In this document: piece after piece, positions 1-63,554 of the stretch
Layout of the letters: each line of letters begins with the position of its first letter
Position numbering within the stretch: the stretch's first letter is position 1
NCBI GenBank assembly: GCA_963663965.2
Contig: CAXXFK010000030.1
Span: 32,001-96,000, forward strand
DNA from: Sedimentisphaerales bacterium
GTDB taxonomy: Bacteria; Planctomycetota; Phycisphaerae; Sedimentisphaerales; SM23-30
Direction of reading: 5' to 3'
Length of the DNA: 64,000 nt
Translations under genes and position numbers: made by a program
The notes under the pieces: model-generated
What the model was told of the DNA's origin: nothing
The model's database searches: none
Seen by the model: only the letters and a program-made list of their open reading frames with translations

Positions 1-309
1 ATGTTTGGCGCGGAAGGCGCGCTGGCCACGGAGTATGGCGGGCAGGTGGTGATCCTGGGCGACCATTTCTACCAGGGGGGCAAGACCTCGGGGATTTATG
101 GCGAAGGGGCGGCGGCCAATATTGCGACGTTTTATGACAATATCAAGGCGGGGAACTACGACAATGTGACGGTGGAGCCGAGTGTGCAGAGTAACCTGGT
201 GAGTATCCTGGGGCGGGAGGCCGCGCGGCGTCAGACGACGGTGACCTGGGAGCAGCTGATGAAAGACGCGCCCCGGCTGGAATATGATTTTAAGGGGTTG
301 AAGCGTTAG
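1..309 (+). CDS. C-terminal part of a probable Gfo/Idh/MocA-family oxidoreductase (5' truncated by window edge)
   Basis: ORF starts at base 1. The C-terminal pattern F..NI......SNLVSILGREAA....VTW resembles planctomycete Gfo/Idh/MocA C-termini; the Rossmann domain is not visible. Confidence 0.6.
   Translation: MFGAEGALATEYGGQVVILGDHFYQGGKTSGIYGEGAAANIATFYDNIKAGNYDNVTVEPSVQSNLVSILGREAARRQTTVTWEQLMKDAPRLEYDFKGLKR
247..309 (+). repeat. Direct repeat copy 1 (3' end of the oxidoreductase gene)
   Basis: 63 bp matching 2709..2771 with 6 mismatches; 273..309 is identical to 2735..2771 (37 bp). Confidence 0.95.
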
Positions 310-344
310 AGATTAATCTCATATGATAAGACAGGTTTCTGGTA

Positions 345-1163
345 ATGGCTAACAAAAATCAGCCGGTGGCATATGCCCGGATTCATGTTCTGATGGCCCG
401 GAGCGCGCTGTATGGGGTGGTTATGCGACGGGGGCCGTCTAAGCAGGTTTGTACGATCGGGTGGGACCGGGAGCATGATACTTTCCAGATCGGGCAGTGG
501 CTGAAGGGGCGTATTTATGAACGGCGCTGCGATTTGTCGCCGGATGGCAAACGCATGATTTATTTTGCCATGAACGGGAAATGGCAGTCAGATGTCGGGG
601 GGAGTTGGACGGCCATTTCCAGGGCGCCGTATCTGAACTCGGACATGCTGGAGGGTAAGGGAGACTGTTGGCATGGGGGTGGTCTTTTTATGGATAATGA
701 GACTTACTGGATTAACGACGGGTATGGCCATAAAGTTGTTCCGGGTCATGCTCCTTTCGATTTCAGTTTTAAAGAGAATAATTATCTCGGAGAATGTCCG
801 GGTGTTTATTATCCTCGACTCAAGCGTGACGGCTGGGTGATGACAGGAAAAACCGATACGATCAGTTCTTTTGAGAAAGAGTTGTGGGGCGGCTGGATAT
901 TGCGGAAGCAAGCTTATGCTACAATCGATCATCCGCCCGGCAAGGGGTGTTATTATGATGAACATGAATTGATCCATACGACAAGAGGGAAGGCTATTCG
1001 CCATCCAGATTGGGAATGGGCCGAACGGGATCGGGACCGTCTGGTCTGGGCCGAGAAGGGGTGTTTGTACACCGGCACGCTAAATAATGATGGGCTGGCA
1101 GAGATTCAGTTGCTGCGGGATTTTAACGATATGGTTTTTGAGCCGATTAAGGCGCCTTATTAA
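345..1163 (+). CDS. Hypothetical protein, Trp/Gly-rich, possibly beta-propeller-like
   Basis: 272-aa ORF with a DLSPDG-type turn motif; no function assignable. Confidence 0.75.
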   Translation: MANKNQPVAYARIHVLMARSALYGVVMRRGPSKQVCTIGWDREHDTFQIGQWLKGRIYERRCDLSPDGKRMIYFAMNGKWQSDVGGSWTAISRAPYLNSDMLEGKGDCWHGGGLFMDNETYWINDGYGHKVVPGHAPFDFSFKENNYLGECPGVYYPRLKRDGWVMTGKTDTISSFEKELWGGWILRKQAYATIDHPPGKGCYYDEHELIHTTRGKAIRHPDWEWAERDRDRLVWAEKGCLYTGTLNNDGLAEIQLLRDFNDMVFEPIKAPY

Positions 1164-1236
1164 CCTGAAGTTGCTTAAAGAGATTTTTCAGGTAATTCAT
1201 AAAATCACTCAAAATCCTTGGGCAAATACAATGTCT

Positions 1237-1305
1237 TGGCCCCGACGCTCGATGGACCTAAATTGCACAATCGAACTCCTTGCCGGTCAATGGAACTTTC
1301 TGCAT
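1237..1305 (-). pseudogene. Truncated GxxExxY gene remnant
   Basis: Translates MQKVPLTGKEFDCAI*VHRASGP versus intact MQKDPLTGKVIGCAIEVHRALGP (start 2421). It has an in-frame TAG and homology is lost after ~23 codons; the upstream flank is also homologous. Confidence 0.9.
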
Positions 1306-1334
1306 CTTATACCTCAATACAATAAACAACAATA

Positions 1335-1473
1335 ACCACAGAGGGCACAGAGAACACAGAGTAAAATAACAGCCGCCAGTGGCTTGTTGACGAATAATAA
1401 GATACCCGAACATAGGAATAAAATCTTGTGGGTGCAATGAAATCTGAGTGTTTTTCTCTGTGCCCTTTGTGGT
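1335..1473. repeat. Inverted-repeat-bounded element, copy 1 (REPIN-like/invertible segment)
   Basis: ACCACAGAGGGCACAGAGAA (1335-1354) and TTCTCTGTGCCCTTTGTGGT (1454-1473), 19/20 complementary. The interior is the reverse complement homologue of the interior of 2450..2623. Confidence 0.9.
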
Positions 1474-1572
1474 AGTATTTTTTCAAAACCTGTCATATTT
1501 TCATTATCGACTTTTTGTCTTAACGTATGTAAAAATTCGTTCGTCGCTTCTTTTCATGGAGCAAAGGAGTCT

Positions 1573-2016
1573 TTATATCTTTTTAATCAGATCAGCAAAA
1601 TGGGCCGGGTATTGAACCGTTTTATTGGAGACATGATCAAAAAGAGTCTCGCCGCGAATTTCATATCTGGCCAGTAACGTTTGGGTATCGAAAACCAGCA
1701 TGCCGCCAATGGATAGACGGCGGAACAGCGCGTAAGTTACAGAAGCCATCGTCATCAGTTGTAAAGGCCGAAAGTCCGCGTCGGACCATGGAGTGCGAAT
1801 ACTGATTTTATATTGAAAGTTTTCAACGTCCAGCTCGCCATCATTTTCAAGGGTATGTTCGCCAAAATAAAATTCCATACCCAAAAGCCAACAGAAACGA
1901 TAGTCATCGGGATCTTCGCGTGAGGCAAACCGGCACCCAATCCATCCTTCCAGATCTTTGAGCAACGTCTCCTGATCGCCATCGTAATTAAACAAGAAAT
2001 CTATTGTAATACTCAT
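1573..2016 (-). CDS. Small acidic hypothetical protein
   Basis: 147-aa ORF, co-oriented 33 bp downstream of the GxxExxY gene. Confidence 0.75.
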   Translation of the reverse strand: MSITIDFLFNYDGDQETLLKDLEGWIGCRFASREDPDDYRFCWLLGMEFYFGEHTLENDGELDVENFQYKISIRTPWSDADFRPLQLMTMASVTYALFRRLSIGGMLVFDTQTLLARYEIRGETLFDHVSNKTVQYPAHFADLIKKI

Positions 2017-2049
2017 ATATTCATTTTCTGAAGGGATATCACAAAGCCC

Positions 2050-2421
2050 CTAAAACACGTACCGTTGAATGCCGTCAACCAGCCTCAGCACATTAAAATT
2101 GATTAACAATCCCTTATGGATATCCGCCAGTTTCATATAGGTCATTAATTGGGCCTTATGGATCTCCTGGACCGTATCTACCGCCTTCAACTCTACAATC
2201 AGCTTGCCTTCGACCATGAGATCTATTCTGTAGCCACAATCCAGTTTTATCCCTTTATAGACCACCGGTAGCGATGCTTCGACTTGATGTGTCACAGCAT
2301 TCAATCCCAACTCGTGAGCCAGACATTTCTGGTAAGTCGATTCCAGCAATCCCGGCCCCAATGCCCGATGAACTTCAATCGCACAACCAATCACTTTTCC
2401 TGTCAATGGGTCTTTTTGCAT
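2050..2421 (-). CDS. GxxExxY protein (PD-(D/E)XK nuclease-like family)
   Basis: Motifs LGPGLLESTY, RIDLMVE..LIVELK, AQLMTYMK and GLLINF. The ATG at 2421 is preceded by GGAGG (the track start at 2499 is probably too long). Confidence 0.92.
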   Translation of the reverse strand: MQKDPLTGKVIGCAIEVHRALGPGLLESTYQKCLAHELGLNAVTHQVEASLPVVYKGIKLDCGYRIDLMVEGKLIVELKAVDTVQEIHKAQLMTYMKLADIHKGLLINFNVLRLVDGIQRYVF

Positions 2422-2449
2422 CTTACACCTCCACTCAATAAAAGCACTA

Positions 2450-2623
2450 ACCACAGAGGGCGCAGGGTTCACAGAGAAAAAACACTTGTGATTAAACACT
2501 CAGATTCCATTATAACAACAAGCCATTTATAATCAATTTATTTCTATGTTCTATATGCCGTTATCCGTTAGCTAGTCATTGGCGACTTTTGTTTTACTCT
2601 GAGTTCTTAGCGCCCTCTGTGGT
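2450..2623. repeat. Inverted-repeat-bounded element, copy 2
   Basis: Perfect 14-bp IR ACCACAGAGGGCGC (2450-2463) / GCGCCCTCTGTGGT (2610-2623), directly upstream of the GxxExxY gene. Confidence 0.9.
2509..2536 (-). promoter_or_regulatory. Candidate sigma70 promoter for GxxExxY inside the IR element
   Basis: Minus strand TTGATT-N16-TATAAT with an extended -10 (TGnTATAAT), ~90 bp upstream of the ATG. Confidence 0.7.
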
Positions 2624-2708
2624 AACAATATTTTTATCAGCCCGGTCGATTCGTAAAAAGCAGGCTCATTTACCCTTCTCCCTGTCTCATGGTACCATTT
2701 CGATCATG

Positions 2709-2771
2709 TGAGAGCAGTTGAAGAAAGATGCGATCCGGCTGGAATATGATTTTAAGGGGTTGAAGCGTTAG
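2709..2771 (+). repeat. Direct repeat copy 2 (degenerate duplicate of the oxidoreductase 3' end)
   Basis: 57/63 identical to 247..309; the Trp TGG has become TGA, so this copy is non-coding. Confidence 0.95.
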
Positions 2772-2893
2772 GCTTGATCTGCATTTATAGATTTAAGGGC
2801 TCCCCTAAAAATTCAATATGTGAATTATTTCCAGAAATTCTATGTATGTTTATTCCGCATGGAGCGAGGCCCCGTTCGCGAAACTGTTCCTTA

Positions 2894-5437
2894 TTAATCC
2901 TTGAGAAGGAAAAGTCCGTCTTTAGGTCCGAGCGTGACGGTTTGGGCTATGGCTGTTCCGTTGTTGGTCCGGGTGTCCTGGTTGGCGGTCGCCTGGAGTC
3001 GACGGTAGCTGTTGCCGGGGGCGATCTGTGACAGGTCGAAGGTGAAGGGTTTCAGGCCGGGATTGGCCAGGACGATCCCCTTTTCGTAGATTCGATACAT
3101 GGCGTCGGGCTTGTTGTGGAGGGTCATCGACGAGATGGTGACAGGTTCTGTGCCCTCGATGTAACAGGTCAGGTTGATGGTATTGGATTTGATGTGGCGG
3201 TAGTAGAACGTTGAGGCGAGGGGTTCGGAGCCCGCCCAGGTCATGAAACGTTCCGGCGGGGTCAGTCGTTCCGGATCGACGTTCTTTGGGATGATAAAGA
3301 CGTCCGACCAATAGGCGTGGTCGGTCGTGGCATTGTTCTGCGGCCCGCAGTCGGCAACGAATTTCAGGCGGATTTGCTTGTCCGCATAGGGTGTGAGGTT
3401 GACGGTCAGGTCTGTCCATTTGTATTCTTTGGTATGCGTTTCTTTAAGTTTTTTGAAGGGCCCCGGTGTGCCATTGGTGAGTTCGGCCGCATGGATACTG
3501 AACCAGACACCATCGCTTCTGGTTGGGCTTTTCGGTCCCATACCGATGGCGCAGGTAAGTACGGCGTCCCCGGTGAGCTGAACATCCCTGGTCCAATAGA
3601 CGTAGCCTTTCGAGTCGACATAGGGCGGGTGGACAAAGAACGCGTCGCGCTGTTCTTGGCCGATGGTGGGGCGCTGGCGTCGGAACATGGCGCCCGAGGC
3701 TGGGTCGAGGGGCTGTTCATCCCGGCCGCGCAGTCCCATGCCGATATCGGGCTCATCCCCGGTCATCAGGTTGATCCCGCTCGACGCTTCGAGCTGGATG
3801 AAGCGGGCACAGGTCTCAGGGTAATCCTTCATGGGCTCCGCCTTCATAACGAGAGATACCGTTAAATCTGGGCCAGTGGTCGGGATATTACGAATGGAGA
3901 AGTGATAACCGTCAGGCGACAGCGACCTGGGTGACACGCACAGTCCATCGGGTTTTGTGTTGAGTGTGACATCACCTGTAATGCACTGTATCAGCGGCTT
4001 GCCGTTGAGCAGGTCGGGGGATTTCATTGCCAGGTGGACAGCGGGTCCGACCGGCTTCCCAAGCCAGCCTAATTTGTTGTCGACACCGCAGCGTAATTCA
4101 TCCCAGATGCCGAACTTGCCATCAGGATCGCTCGCCGGCGGGAAGGCATAACAGATGGCCGTGTCCGTGAAGCAGCCGGCAGCAAAGACCAGTCGATGGA
4201 TATTGAATTCAACCTCCGGACGGCGTTGCGCGCCGGGCGGTCCGCCGGGTACGCTTTCGACGTACTTGTGATTGATGTAATTAAATACGGGCTTACGGGC
4301 ATAGGCCTGCCAGGCGCTGTGGCGATTCAGACCTCCGGACCAGTTGTGAACTTCAGGATCGCCCAGGTCCGGCCAGCCCTCGCTCTCGATGCCGTTGAGG
4401 TATCCCCAGGCGCGCTGTGATCGGACGCTGTCGGGGCCAAGCGCACCGTCACCAAGGATCAGGAAATCATCGCCCATGCGTTCTCGCAGCTGACGGCAGA
4501 ACTTGACCATGCCGATACCGTAGTGATTGATGCCGTCGATGACACCGTCATCCTCGATGCCGTTGCCGCTGGTGTCGCCGTGCGTGTCGTTGAAGAGCAC
4601 GTCGAACTCAAGACCGTCGTATTGAGCCAGCGGGCCAGTGGGTCCGAACCATCGCGCGATGTCATCGATGTAGCGATCGGCCGCAGTCTTGCCGGTACTG
4701 TCTTTCGGGCAAAGATCTGAGAAGTTGTAGTACCACATGATATTGTTGTTCTTACCCCACGGGCCCTCGACCTGATGGGCAACGGCACGGGCTTTTCCGG
4801 CCGTGAACGCCAGCGGCTTCGTCCCGTATTGGCCGCGACGTACCCGGATGGTGTTGGTATTCATATCGATGGAAACGAGCTGAACTTCTTCGCAGCAATC
4901 CCAGTCGTACGTACCGTCGGCCTTGAGTCTGAACAACGCGATATCATCATTGCTGTCGGCGTATCGTCCCATTTTTACGCGGAATCGGCCTGCGTCACTG
5001 ACCTGAATAGTCGTCTCGCCTGTGACGGCAGGAATATCGTGCAGGATTTCGGCGGGAGTGCGGTAGATCCAATGGCCCGGGAAGAAGTTGGATGCCTCGA
5101 ATCGCGGGTCGCGGGCGTTGCCGTTGAGATGGAGCAATACGACCTGGTCCGGGTGCTCGTGTTTGAACCGGCTGAAGACCGCCGGGTTGTTTTTCATGCG
5201 GCCCTGGACCTCCTCGTCGAGAGATTTGCCGATGATACCCATCAGCCGGCTGTAGTCGGCATGCCATTTGTCGTAATCGAAATTCGTTTGGGCCGGCGGC
5301 CCCTCGCACGATCGGAAGAAAAACGCGCGTGGCCAGCCGTCGTTAAGGATGCGCAGTTGCCCGGGATTGCGTGTCTGTCCGCTGATGCCGGTTGCCGTCA
5401 GTATTGCAGTAAGGATAATTATAAACCTACTGTGCAT
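2894..5437 (-). CDS. Secreted putative glycoside hydrolase-like protein with an inserted beta-sandwich (CBM/NPCBM-like) module
   Basis: Signal peptide after MHSRF (GGAG RBS). DGLEFD and LNGIESE strands suggest a TIM barrel; the GIVLANP...YRRL...NNG tail recalls GHL15-type proteins; HPPY-containing insert. Confidence 0.55.
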   Translation of the reverse strand: MHSRFIIILTAILTATGISGQTRNPGQLRILNDGWPRAFFFRSCEGPPAQTNFDYDKWHADYSRLMGIIGKSLDEEVQGRMKNNPAVFSRFKHEHPDQVVLLHLNGNARDPRFEASNFFPGHWIYRTPAEILHDIPAVTGETTIQVSDAGRFRVKMGRYADSNDDIALFRLKADGTYDWDCCEEVQLVSIDMNTNTIRVRRGQYGTKPLAFTAGKARAVAHQVEGPWGKNNNIMWYYNFSDLCPKDSTGKTAADRYIDDIARWFGPTGPLAQYDGLEFDVLFNDTHGDTSGNGIEDDGVIDGINHYGIGMVKFCRQLRERMGDDFLILGDGALGPDSVRSQRAWGYLNGIESEGWPDLGDPEVHNWSGGLNRHSAWQAYARKPVFNYINHKYVESVPGGPPGAQRRPEVEFNIHRLVFAAGCFTDTAICYAFPPASDPDGKFGIWDELRCGVDNKLGWLGKPVGPAVHLAMKSPDLLNGKPLIQCITGDVTLNTKPDGLCVSPRSLSPDGYHFSIRNIPTTGPDLTVSLVMKAEPMKDYPETCARFIQLEASSGINLMTGDEPDIGMGLRGRDEQPLDPASGAMFRRQRPTIGQEQRDAFFVHPPYVDSKGYVYWTRDVQLTGDAVLTCAIGMGPKSPTRSDGVWFSIHAAELTNGTPGPFKKLKETHTKEYKWTDLTVNLTPYADKQIRLKFVADCGPQNNATTDHAYWSDVFIIPKNVDPERLTPPERFMTWAGSEPLASTFYYRHIKSNTINLTCYIEGTEPVTISSMTLHNKPDAMYRIYEKGIVLANPGLKPFTFDLSQIAPGNSYRRLQATANQDTRTNNGTAIAQTVTLGPKDGLFLLKD

Positions 5438-10255: not shown

Positions 10256-10436
10256 GGAACCGCGCATAAATAACTACTCCATTTTTCATCCCATCTTGCC
10301 ACCATCTTCAGCCGCTTCTCAATCGCGAAATCCTCGACATAGAATAGCTATGCCTGCGGTTTTGCTCAATCGGCGCGACTGAATCTGACAACAAACTGTG
10401 CGAGAAATGTAGCATTTATTTATGCGCGGCTCCTTA
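10253..10436. mobile_element. MITE-like non-autonomous element (180 bp plus TA duplication)
   Basis: 19-bp TIRs AGGAACCGCGCATAAATAA (10255-10273) / TTATTTATGCGCGGCTCCT (10416-10434) with 1 mismatch, flanked by TA on both sides; no credible ORF. Confidence 0.75.
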
Positions 10437-63316: not shown

Positions 63317-63554
63317 TGAAATTAGAACTGTATGCCAATCAGCCGGAGTACAAGTGCAGCACTAGGGCGATTAGCACTTATGTGAGCATTGAGTAGGGAT
63401 GTTGAGACTGGATAGAGTTCTGAACCGTTGGTATTGAACCCCAATCAATATTATTCTCAATTGCCCCATAGCTGATTTTGTGTGAGATGGGTAAAAGAGA
63501 TTAATGGCAGAATATTTCTTTCACCACCTCAAAAAAACAATTCTGAAATATCAC

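Follow-up and report, generated by a model that had tools for sequence, protein, structure and literature searches.

Oppositely oriented hairpin spacers beside two GxxExxY gene copies suggest an ancient inversion between heptad arms

We analyzed a 64,000-nt stretch of DNA from a Sedimentisphaerales bacterium (assembly GCA_963663965.2, contig CAXXFK010000030.1, positions 32,001 to 96,000; hereafter the window), in which an intact GxxExxY gene and a GxxExxY pseudogene are each preceded by a hairpin, and found that the spacers of the two hairpins are reverse complements of each other between co-oriented gene-side flanks. The explanation that we favor, judging it somewhat likelier to be right than wrong, is a one-off ancient inversion of one spacer in place between its arms, which would make the locus a fossil and not a working phase switch.

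Two GxxExxY copies and their hairpins

Both GxxExxY/hairpin units sit within a 2.4-kb insert of lower GC content (310-2708; 45% G+C as against 60% and 57% beside it). The intact gene (copy B; 2050-2421, minus strand) encodes 123 amino acids and matches TIGR04256 (E 1e-42, 145.2 bits, cut-off 35) and PF13366 (PDDEXK_3; E 3.7e-41, 140.6 bits, cut-off 22); its 5' leader, with a GGAGG ribosome-binding site (2422-2449, minus strand), is homologous to 1306-1334. Copy A is a pseudogene (1237-1305, minus strand) that holds codons 1-23 only, with a TAG at codon 16 (1258-1260), and beyond these 23 codons it aligns with nothing further of copy B. Gene, leader, and arm are homologous between the copies as one run of 129 nt (77.5%). 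Within the shared gene part 18 of 69 nt differ, and because these substitutions fall mostly at third positions (12, at 12 of the 23 third codon positions), both copies appear to have been coding long after they split. Judged from the alignments, the copies are old paralogues and not alleles of one locus; their co-oriented homology and old divergence are evident in the sequence, and the whole hairpin-plus-gene unit would share a common ancestry.

The original prediction placed inverted repeats at the ends of the segment ahead of each copy. Such repeats are present, and we could refine them to arrays of 9-nt units, three in each arm save for two in the far arm of A. Hairpin A consists of a gene-side arm of three CACAGAG heptads with a 9-nt period (1335-1361, plus strand), a spacer (1362-1455), and a far arm of two heptads from which one 9-nt unit has been lost (1456-1473, minus strand). 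Hairpin B has a gene-side arm of three heptads, the middle one decayed (2450-2476, plus strand), a spacer (2477-2596), and a far arm (2597-2623, minus strand) whose first 14 nt are perfectly complementary to the gene-side arm. Both segments fold as hairpins (z -4.2 and -4.8), and the arm pairs are perfect over 14 nt only in B, with 19 of 20 positions matching in A. Over the outer 14 nt there are 0 and 1 mismatches within each hairpin compared with 1-2 across the copies, a likeness that fits homogenization of the arms and whose signal amounts to one or two bases.

The reverse complement of 1335-1397 matches 2561-2623 at 50 of 63 positions without gaps, as the original prediction had it; 27 of these 63 nt belong to the repeat arm, and the spacer part alone matches at 27 of 36. 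When the ends were trimmed by 12, 20, or 32 nt, the flipped alignment scored 84, 69.5, and 25.5, compared with 3, -5, and -30 for the same orientation and 3.5, 1, and -1.5 for the best of 1000 shuffles. The gene-side 30-nt flanks of A and B are homologous in the same orientation, with a score that none of 2000 shuffles reached. The far-side flanks show no significant likeness (p 0.06-0.70), so the flip is firmly anchored on one side only and an inversion in place is read from a single flank. The third heptad and its neighbors follow the orientation of the spacer, which would place the crossover in the outer one or two heptads. By hand count the spacers differ at 16 of 82 aligned nt and are better conserved than the shared gene part. 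A small stem within them (AGCC/GGCT at 1371-1384 in A; AGTC/GACT at 2574-2587, on the minus strand, in B) shows by eye one compensatory change between the copies, which hints at selection on the spacer. We found no third copy of the spacer in this genome, and neither 60 relatives nor 400 genomes from the phylum had more than short matches to it.

A 7-nt word at 1328-1334 (plus strand) is repeated exactly at 2624-2630 (plus strand), that is, around 1335-2623; the chance of this is 1.4e-4 per pairing, with four pairings tried. No target-site duplication was found around either hairpin taken alone. Because B's own gene-side flank matches the word at 5 of 7 positions, the repeat may date from an old target duplication around the ancestral hairpin that survives on one side in A and on the opposite side in B. 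It also fits a single cassette spanning 1335-2623, for which no flip is needed, and in this respect counts against an inversion in place. According to this alternative, hairpin A, a 147-aa ORF, the intact GxxExxY gene, and hairpin B form one unit whose hairpins are its inverted ends, and which entered an older GxxExxY gene within its leader, duplicating the 7-nt target and severing that gene from its promoter. The outer 131 nt are indeed inverted repeats at 70%, the layout seen most often among armed genes places the gene between inverted arms (12 of 177 GxxExxY genes), and a hairpin-gene-hairpin cassette elsewhere in the family (L004/L224, discussed below) has inverted outer flanks. We nevertheless consider a single cassette unlikely, if well worth keeping in mind: arm A is placed exactly as arm B within the homologous run of 129 nt, which would require chance or a second targeted insertion, a flanking direct repeat of at least 5 nt accompanies only 1 of 25 gene-bracketing cassettes, and the ends are just 70-79% alike.

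The insert as a whole is enclosed by a 63-nt direct repeat found in a repeat search (copies at 247-309 and 2709-2771, both plus strand; 90% identical, 37 nt perfect). The left copy is the 3' end of an oxidoreductase-like gene (ORF end 309) and the right copy a duplicated gene end, and together with the lower GC content this looks like integration into a gene end; no integrase was found in the window. The family label of the upstream gene is our reading of the translation. A Pfam search with its 102-aa in-window part gave no match, and neither arms nor insert genes occurred within 1.5 kb of nine relatives of the oxidoreductase, which at 48-58% are too distant to define an empty site. As cargo the insert carries a 272-aa ORF (345-1163, plus strand), for which profile search gave no family and which falls into unnamed Atlas clusters (0.97-0.98, recognition below 2300). 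The 147-aa ORF (1573-2016, minus strand) lies directly behind the intact GxxExxY gene and has no known family and three relatives at 46-53%; PF28107 appears on 42% of its third-ranked cluster (score 0.90), and at the feature level it weakly resembles SitI3 immunity proteins. An Rfam search of 1-4000 gave a chance match alone (E 0.34), and among the sequencing runs listed no RNA run held the locus, which has no bearing on its expression. As to other inverted repeats of this genome, a 14-nt perfect inverted repeat with its halves about 170 nt apart is shared by window positions 10260-10429 and C1:117558-117727 and makes up a small two-copy element, and C28:96038-96995 is an inverted repeat of nearly 1 kb that contributes nested perfect matches to the repeat count.

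The predicted promoter and the orientation of spacers

The spacer of hairpin B carries a predicted sigma-70-type promoter, TTGATT-16-TATAAT with an extended -10 TG (2509-2536, minus strand), that faces the intact gene. It was the best of five sites in 1100-2900, and among 3000 dinucleotide-shuffled versions of the spacer strand 0.3% contained a TGnTATAAT with a -35 matching at least 4 of 6 positions. Upstream regions of tRNA genes in this genome carry a 10/12 site toward the gene in 19 of 51 cases, with 4 facing away, so this type of promoter is in use here, and the promoter of copy B, while a prediction, is credible. In copy A the -35 block is gone (a 12-nt gap), a -10 relic, TGCAAT (1433-1438, plus strand), points away from the pseudogene, and the best promoter site reaches 8/12. 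Both states had been recognized in the original prediction. Among 137 other GxxExxY loci, the 250 nt upstream held a 10/12 promoter facing the gene in only 7, with 4 facing away; the promoter is therefore not a family trait.

We propose that an ancestral unit of promoter-bearing hairpin and gene gave rise long ago to two co-oriented copies, and that the spacer of one of them, most likely A, was inverted once in place between its arms. The inversion could have come about by a generic homology-driven process, for example a template switch during replication or recombination of one arm with the other; a nick or extrusion of the hairpin may have set it off. According to excerpts from two reports, template switching between inverted repeats homogenizes arms and inverts spacers (PMC8604942; PMC5941160), the inverted spacers described in the former being 2-5 bp long and from yeast. 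After the flip the promoter would have faced away from gene A; promoter A would then have lost its -35 and decayed, and gene A would have shrunk to 23 codons. The end states of promoter A and gene A are directly visible, and the flip may have preceded or followed the death of the gene. We infer the process, its direction, and a contribution of promoter loss to the death of copy A. A strong promoter inside inverted arms is, however, what a switch would look like, and this counts against reading the locus as a fossil.

The original prediction had indeed proposed that the two copies show an ON/OFF switch in its two states. Were it a true reversible switch, a recombinase encoded elsewhere would flip 2450-2623 and thereby toggle GxxExxY and the 147-aa gene, copy A having been locked OFF and decayed. 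The 14-nt perfect inverted ends around a strong predicted promoter facing the gene, the use of such promoters in this genome (the 19 of 51 tRNA upstream regions), the flipped homologous copy, and 16 tyrosine recombinase matches in the genome would all agree with a switch of this kind, which we still hold to be improbable. The genome, which is 94.6% complete, has 0 matches to the serine resolvase family PF00239, and its matches to PF00589 (16) and PF01548/IS110 (4) all lie outside the window, in line with the earlier remark that the window has no recombinase. The nearest tyrosine and IS110 matches on this contig are about 172 kb and about 120 kb off; according to PMC11892184, the invertase that flips an inverton is often encoded no more than 5 kb from it. 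The arms, moreover, are tandem heptads found at 24 places, and perfect repeats of at least 14 nt, 30-1000 nt apart, number 69 in this genome; the promoter, as seen above, faces the gene in 7 of 137 other loci and away from it in 4.

One contig from a single sample, probably the source, spans 280-2764 without differences and in a single orientation (depth 4.5 and 2.4). No strand-change joint was listed in the contigs of this low-depth sample, which is a weak test since contigs drop rare variants. Joints from 1361 to 2126 or 2311 (27-nt side) proved to be partial 38-48 nt matches of other contigs and not of this locus. With the two orientations residing in old paralogues, a single one in the contigs (weakly tested), and flips absent or very rare in the family, the claim that a switch had been caught both ways is not supported.

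A survey of spacer orientation at GxxExxY loci likewise turned out against switching, with one weak candidate. Within loci, 162 inner spacer pairs had the same orientation, 0 were flipped, and 41 were unrelated; the outer pairs comprised 580 in the same orientation, 0 flipped, 53 unrelated, and 1 ambiguous. All 28 near-identical copies of a gene-in-arms cassette in a Waddliaceae assembly had one orientation, and 0 two-flank inversions were found among 6142 locus pairs with any match, 258 of them colinear over at least 800 nt. Flanks were resolvable in 10 groups of homologous hairpins, and 8 of these were concordant, the exceptions being the present pair, which this comparison does recover, and L004/L224. 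Most of the concordant pairs belong to tandem arrays that were amplified recently or to nearly identical copies; they are not independent of one another, and there has been little time for a flip to occur. The arm detector misses the far arm of hairpin B, and the window pair was entered by hand in several of the comparisons. Apart from the tally of the 28 Waddliaceae copies, the counts leave out 27 of these copies (24 in the BLAST comparison) and duplicate window loci. Outside the present pair, arm-bounded flips appear to be very rare in the family, if they occur at all. Among 20 viral hairpins there was no resolvable homologous pair.

The L004/L224 cassette (G019:C1:211759-212452, in a genome of the same family) is enclosed by outer flanks that are inverted copies of each other (0 of 5000 shuffles), and its spacers look direct (global p 0.018, local p 0.21), which makes it a weak second candidate for a flip. 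Other inversion candidates were rejected: L290 versus L292 is a colinear orthologue with palindromic arms, the candidates at L277 are palindromic arrays, and six pairs in which the gene seemed flipped against shared flanks were three repeat-array matches and three cases of adjacent copies of the multi-copy element. In the Waddliaceae assembly the 28 loci (L062-L091) have GxxExxY between inverted arms in a near-identical multi-copy element that extends about 1.19 kb downstream, which may represent recent spread or strain copies within the assembly.

Spacers near GxxExxY genes are A-rich on the sense strand (inner spacers at 47 of 55 loci, outer spacers at 57 of 59). Spacer B follows the family in this polarity (+0.10) and spacer A is reversed (-0.12), so A probably has the derived orientation; the polarity signal is weak, holding for 13 of 19 spacers of at least 50 nt.

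The heptad arms and the GxxExxY nuclease

From their distribution, the arms are a dispersed repeat family linked to GxxExxY genes and not invertase sites peculiar to this locus. CACAGAG arrays gave 25 matches of at least 18/23 (24 arrays) in this genome, compared with 0 in the reversed genome, and only at this locus does an array have an inverted partner within 1.5 kb. The other arrays are single or co-oriented, include several heptad variants, and separate different cargo genes. In genomes of the same order, exact double heptads occurred in 73 of 101 (0 for the reversed pattern) and PF13366 in 80 of 101. By hand count, arms were present in 64 of the 80 genomes with PF13366 and in 9 of the 21 without it (Fisher p 0.002, which is overstated as kin are not independent). 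Several arm-rich genomes lack PF13366, among them G053, which is 97% complete and has 42 arm matches.

Around GxxExxY relatives in many phyla, the arms enclose the gene, pair up as gene-less hairpins next to it, or make up alternating arrays, which fits the suggestion of a REPIN-like element tied to GxxExxY. Gene-less doublets were found in 7 of 201 relatives' genomes (for one spacing range). Across 177 distinct GxxExxY genes, a single plus arm upstream with a minus arm downstream was the commonest armed layout (12 genes), and 95 genes had no arm by that strict pattern. Open-access article texts (supplements aside) yielded no description of this gene-plus-heptad family.

A 13-nt leader ending in ACAGCC occurs in 27 copies (1 in the control) about 7 nt ahead of arms of several heptad variants; a near copy of it stands at the start of spacer A (1363-1374). 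At L217 (C30:95500-113500, from window position 63500), five co-oriented heptad arms lie between different small cargo genes at a spacing of 3-5 kb and share a leader of 80-240 nt that is 82-90% alike, an arrangement resembling a cassette array, and similar direct-repeat units are seen in L218-L220. A multi-copy Y1 transposase element with internal repeats (copies 90-99.8% alike; C11:18156, C30:159552, C22:74080, and C28:556388 of this genome) is found near heptad arms and is a possible other mobilizer of these repeats; Y1 transposases have 11 matches in the genome, 0 of them in the window and 3 within 4 kb of other arm arrays.

Of the remaining GxxExxY genes in this genome, three (C36:13724-14316, C28:607735-608717, and C30:139746-140411) are framed by direct, not inverted, repeats on other heptads, and the fifth (C42) has no arms. 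At L266 (G004:C1:4382306-4393193), four GxxExxY matches lie within 11 kb in both orientations, and one of them, at about 27 codons, is a fragment comparable to copy A. We know of no known function for GxxExxY genes. PDDEXK_3 is entered as of unknown function in an excerpt from PMC3424549.

The intact protein keeps the motif residues G24, E27, Y30, D67, E77, and K79, and D67, E77, K79, Q91, and Y95 are invariant across 48 relatives. It models confidently (pLDDT 96.5) as a minimal PD-(D/E)XK nuclease of Cas4/RecB-like type, and the fold closest to the model is Cas4 SSO0001 (Foldseek E 5.5e-4; Z 7.8, rmsd 5.0, 101 aligned; a Z below 8 may mean a common fold only). No recombinase fold was among the listed structural matches, a search by sequence found no related solved structure, and 0 of 17 candidate GxxExxY relatives on viral contigs were confirmed.

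A nuclease of this kind might itself have made the flip, by cutting the heptad arms so that repair or re-insertion returned the spacer or the whole hairpin in either orientation, in which case the flip would be a trace left by the way in which the family itself moves. The invariant catalytic-type residues, the fold nearest to Cas4 SSO0001, the co-occurrence of arms with PF13366 (64 of 80 genomes versus 9 of 21), the breakpoints inside the arms, and the weak second case in a genome of the same family (L004/L224) would fit such a role, which we regard as unlikely. Flips are nearly absent in the family, G053 has its 42 arm matches and no PF13366, and the Y1 transposase matches near arm arrays offer another enzyme. 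Moreover, a nuclease fold provides cutting, not joining. A regulatory version, in which GxxExxY and host repair reversibly invert the promoter spacer and toggle both its own gene and the cargo gene, copy A being trapped OFF, seems to us quite improbable.

Comparison with known systems

The locus shares with REPIN-RAYT systems, as described in excerpts from PMC8049555 and PMC3733652, a short variable spacer set between inverted repeats, with folding into a hairpin, many singlets, local tandem arrays, and a linked small DNA-cutting enzyme. It differs in that the arms here are tandem heptads, whereas REPs are self-palindromic and GTAG/CGTC-tagged, and in that the linked gene is predicted to encode a PD-(D/E)XK nuclease (PF13366) whereas RAYT is a Y1 HUH transposase, according to the same excerpts. 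Nor is there a genome-wide population of doublets, this locus having the only one among the 24 arrays. With a linked gene other than a RAYT and no spread of doublets across the genome, the element would be REPIN-like in its working but falls outside the REPINs. MITE/IS-like elements would come as several near-identical dispersed copies, whereas the spacer occurs at two places only. With Cas4/RecB-like nucleases (SSO0001, PDB 4ic1) the modeled GxxExxY protein shares the core fold and the D...ExK...QxxxY residues; it differs in its size of 123 aa and in that no CRISPR context was seen.

Template switching, as excerpted from PMC8604942 and PMC5941160, likewise yields an inverted spacer and homogenized arms without a dedicated enzyme and is favored by arms longer than 9 bp. 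The inverted spacers in the excerpted yeast genes are 2-5 bp (PMC8604942), compared with 94-120 nt here, and the proteobacterial paper covers, in its excerpted part, arm correction and not inversion (PMC5941160).

Hin, fimS, and Mpi are invertible systems. Invertons, in the excerpted account of PMC11892184, have short inverted repeats around a promoter ahead of a gene, and homologous segments occur in the other orientation; the present locus resembles them in this, with inverted repeats in the range of 10-40 nt and a predicted promoter inside the segment (in B only). It differs in that the two orientations reside in old paralogues and not alleles, that no invertase is nearby, that the repeats are a dispersed family, and that the regulated gene would be a nuclease and not a surface structure. 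If the flip were reversible and driven by the nuclease, it would add to the known kinds of phase variation one in which a PD-(D/E)XK nuclease, and not a serine or tyrosine recombinase, operates the inverton. Hairpin B in its native and flipped forms is a ready pair of substrates for probing the enzyme. The evidence points to a single old event. What the locus adds to the known systems is a rearrangement with its ends within the arms, together with a promoter located between these; it indicates that hairpins of this kind are able to turn a promoter around, which may silence a neighboring gene over evolutionary time.
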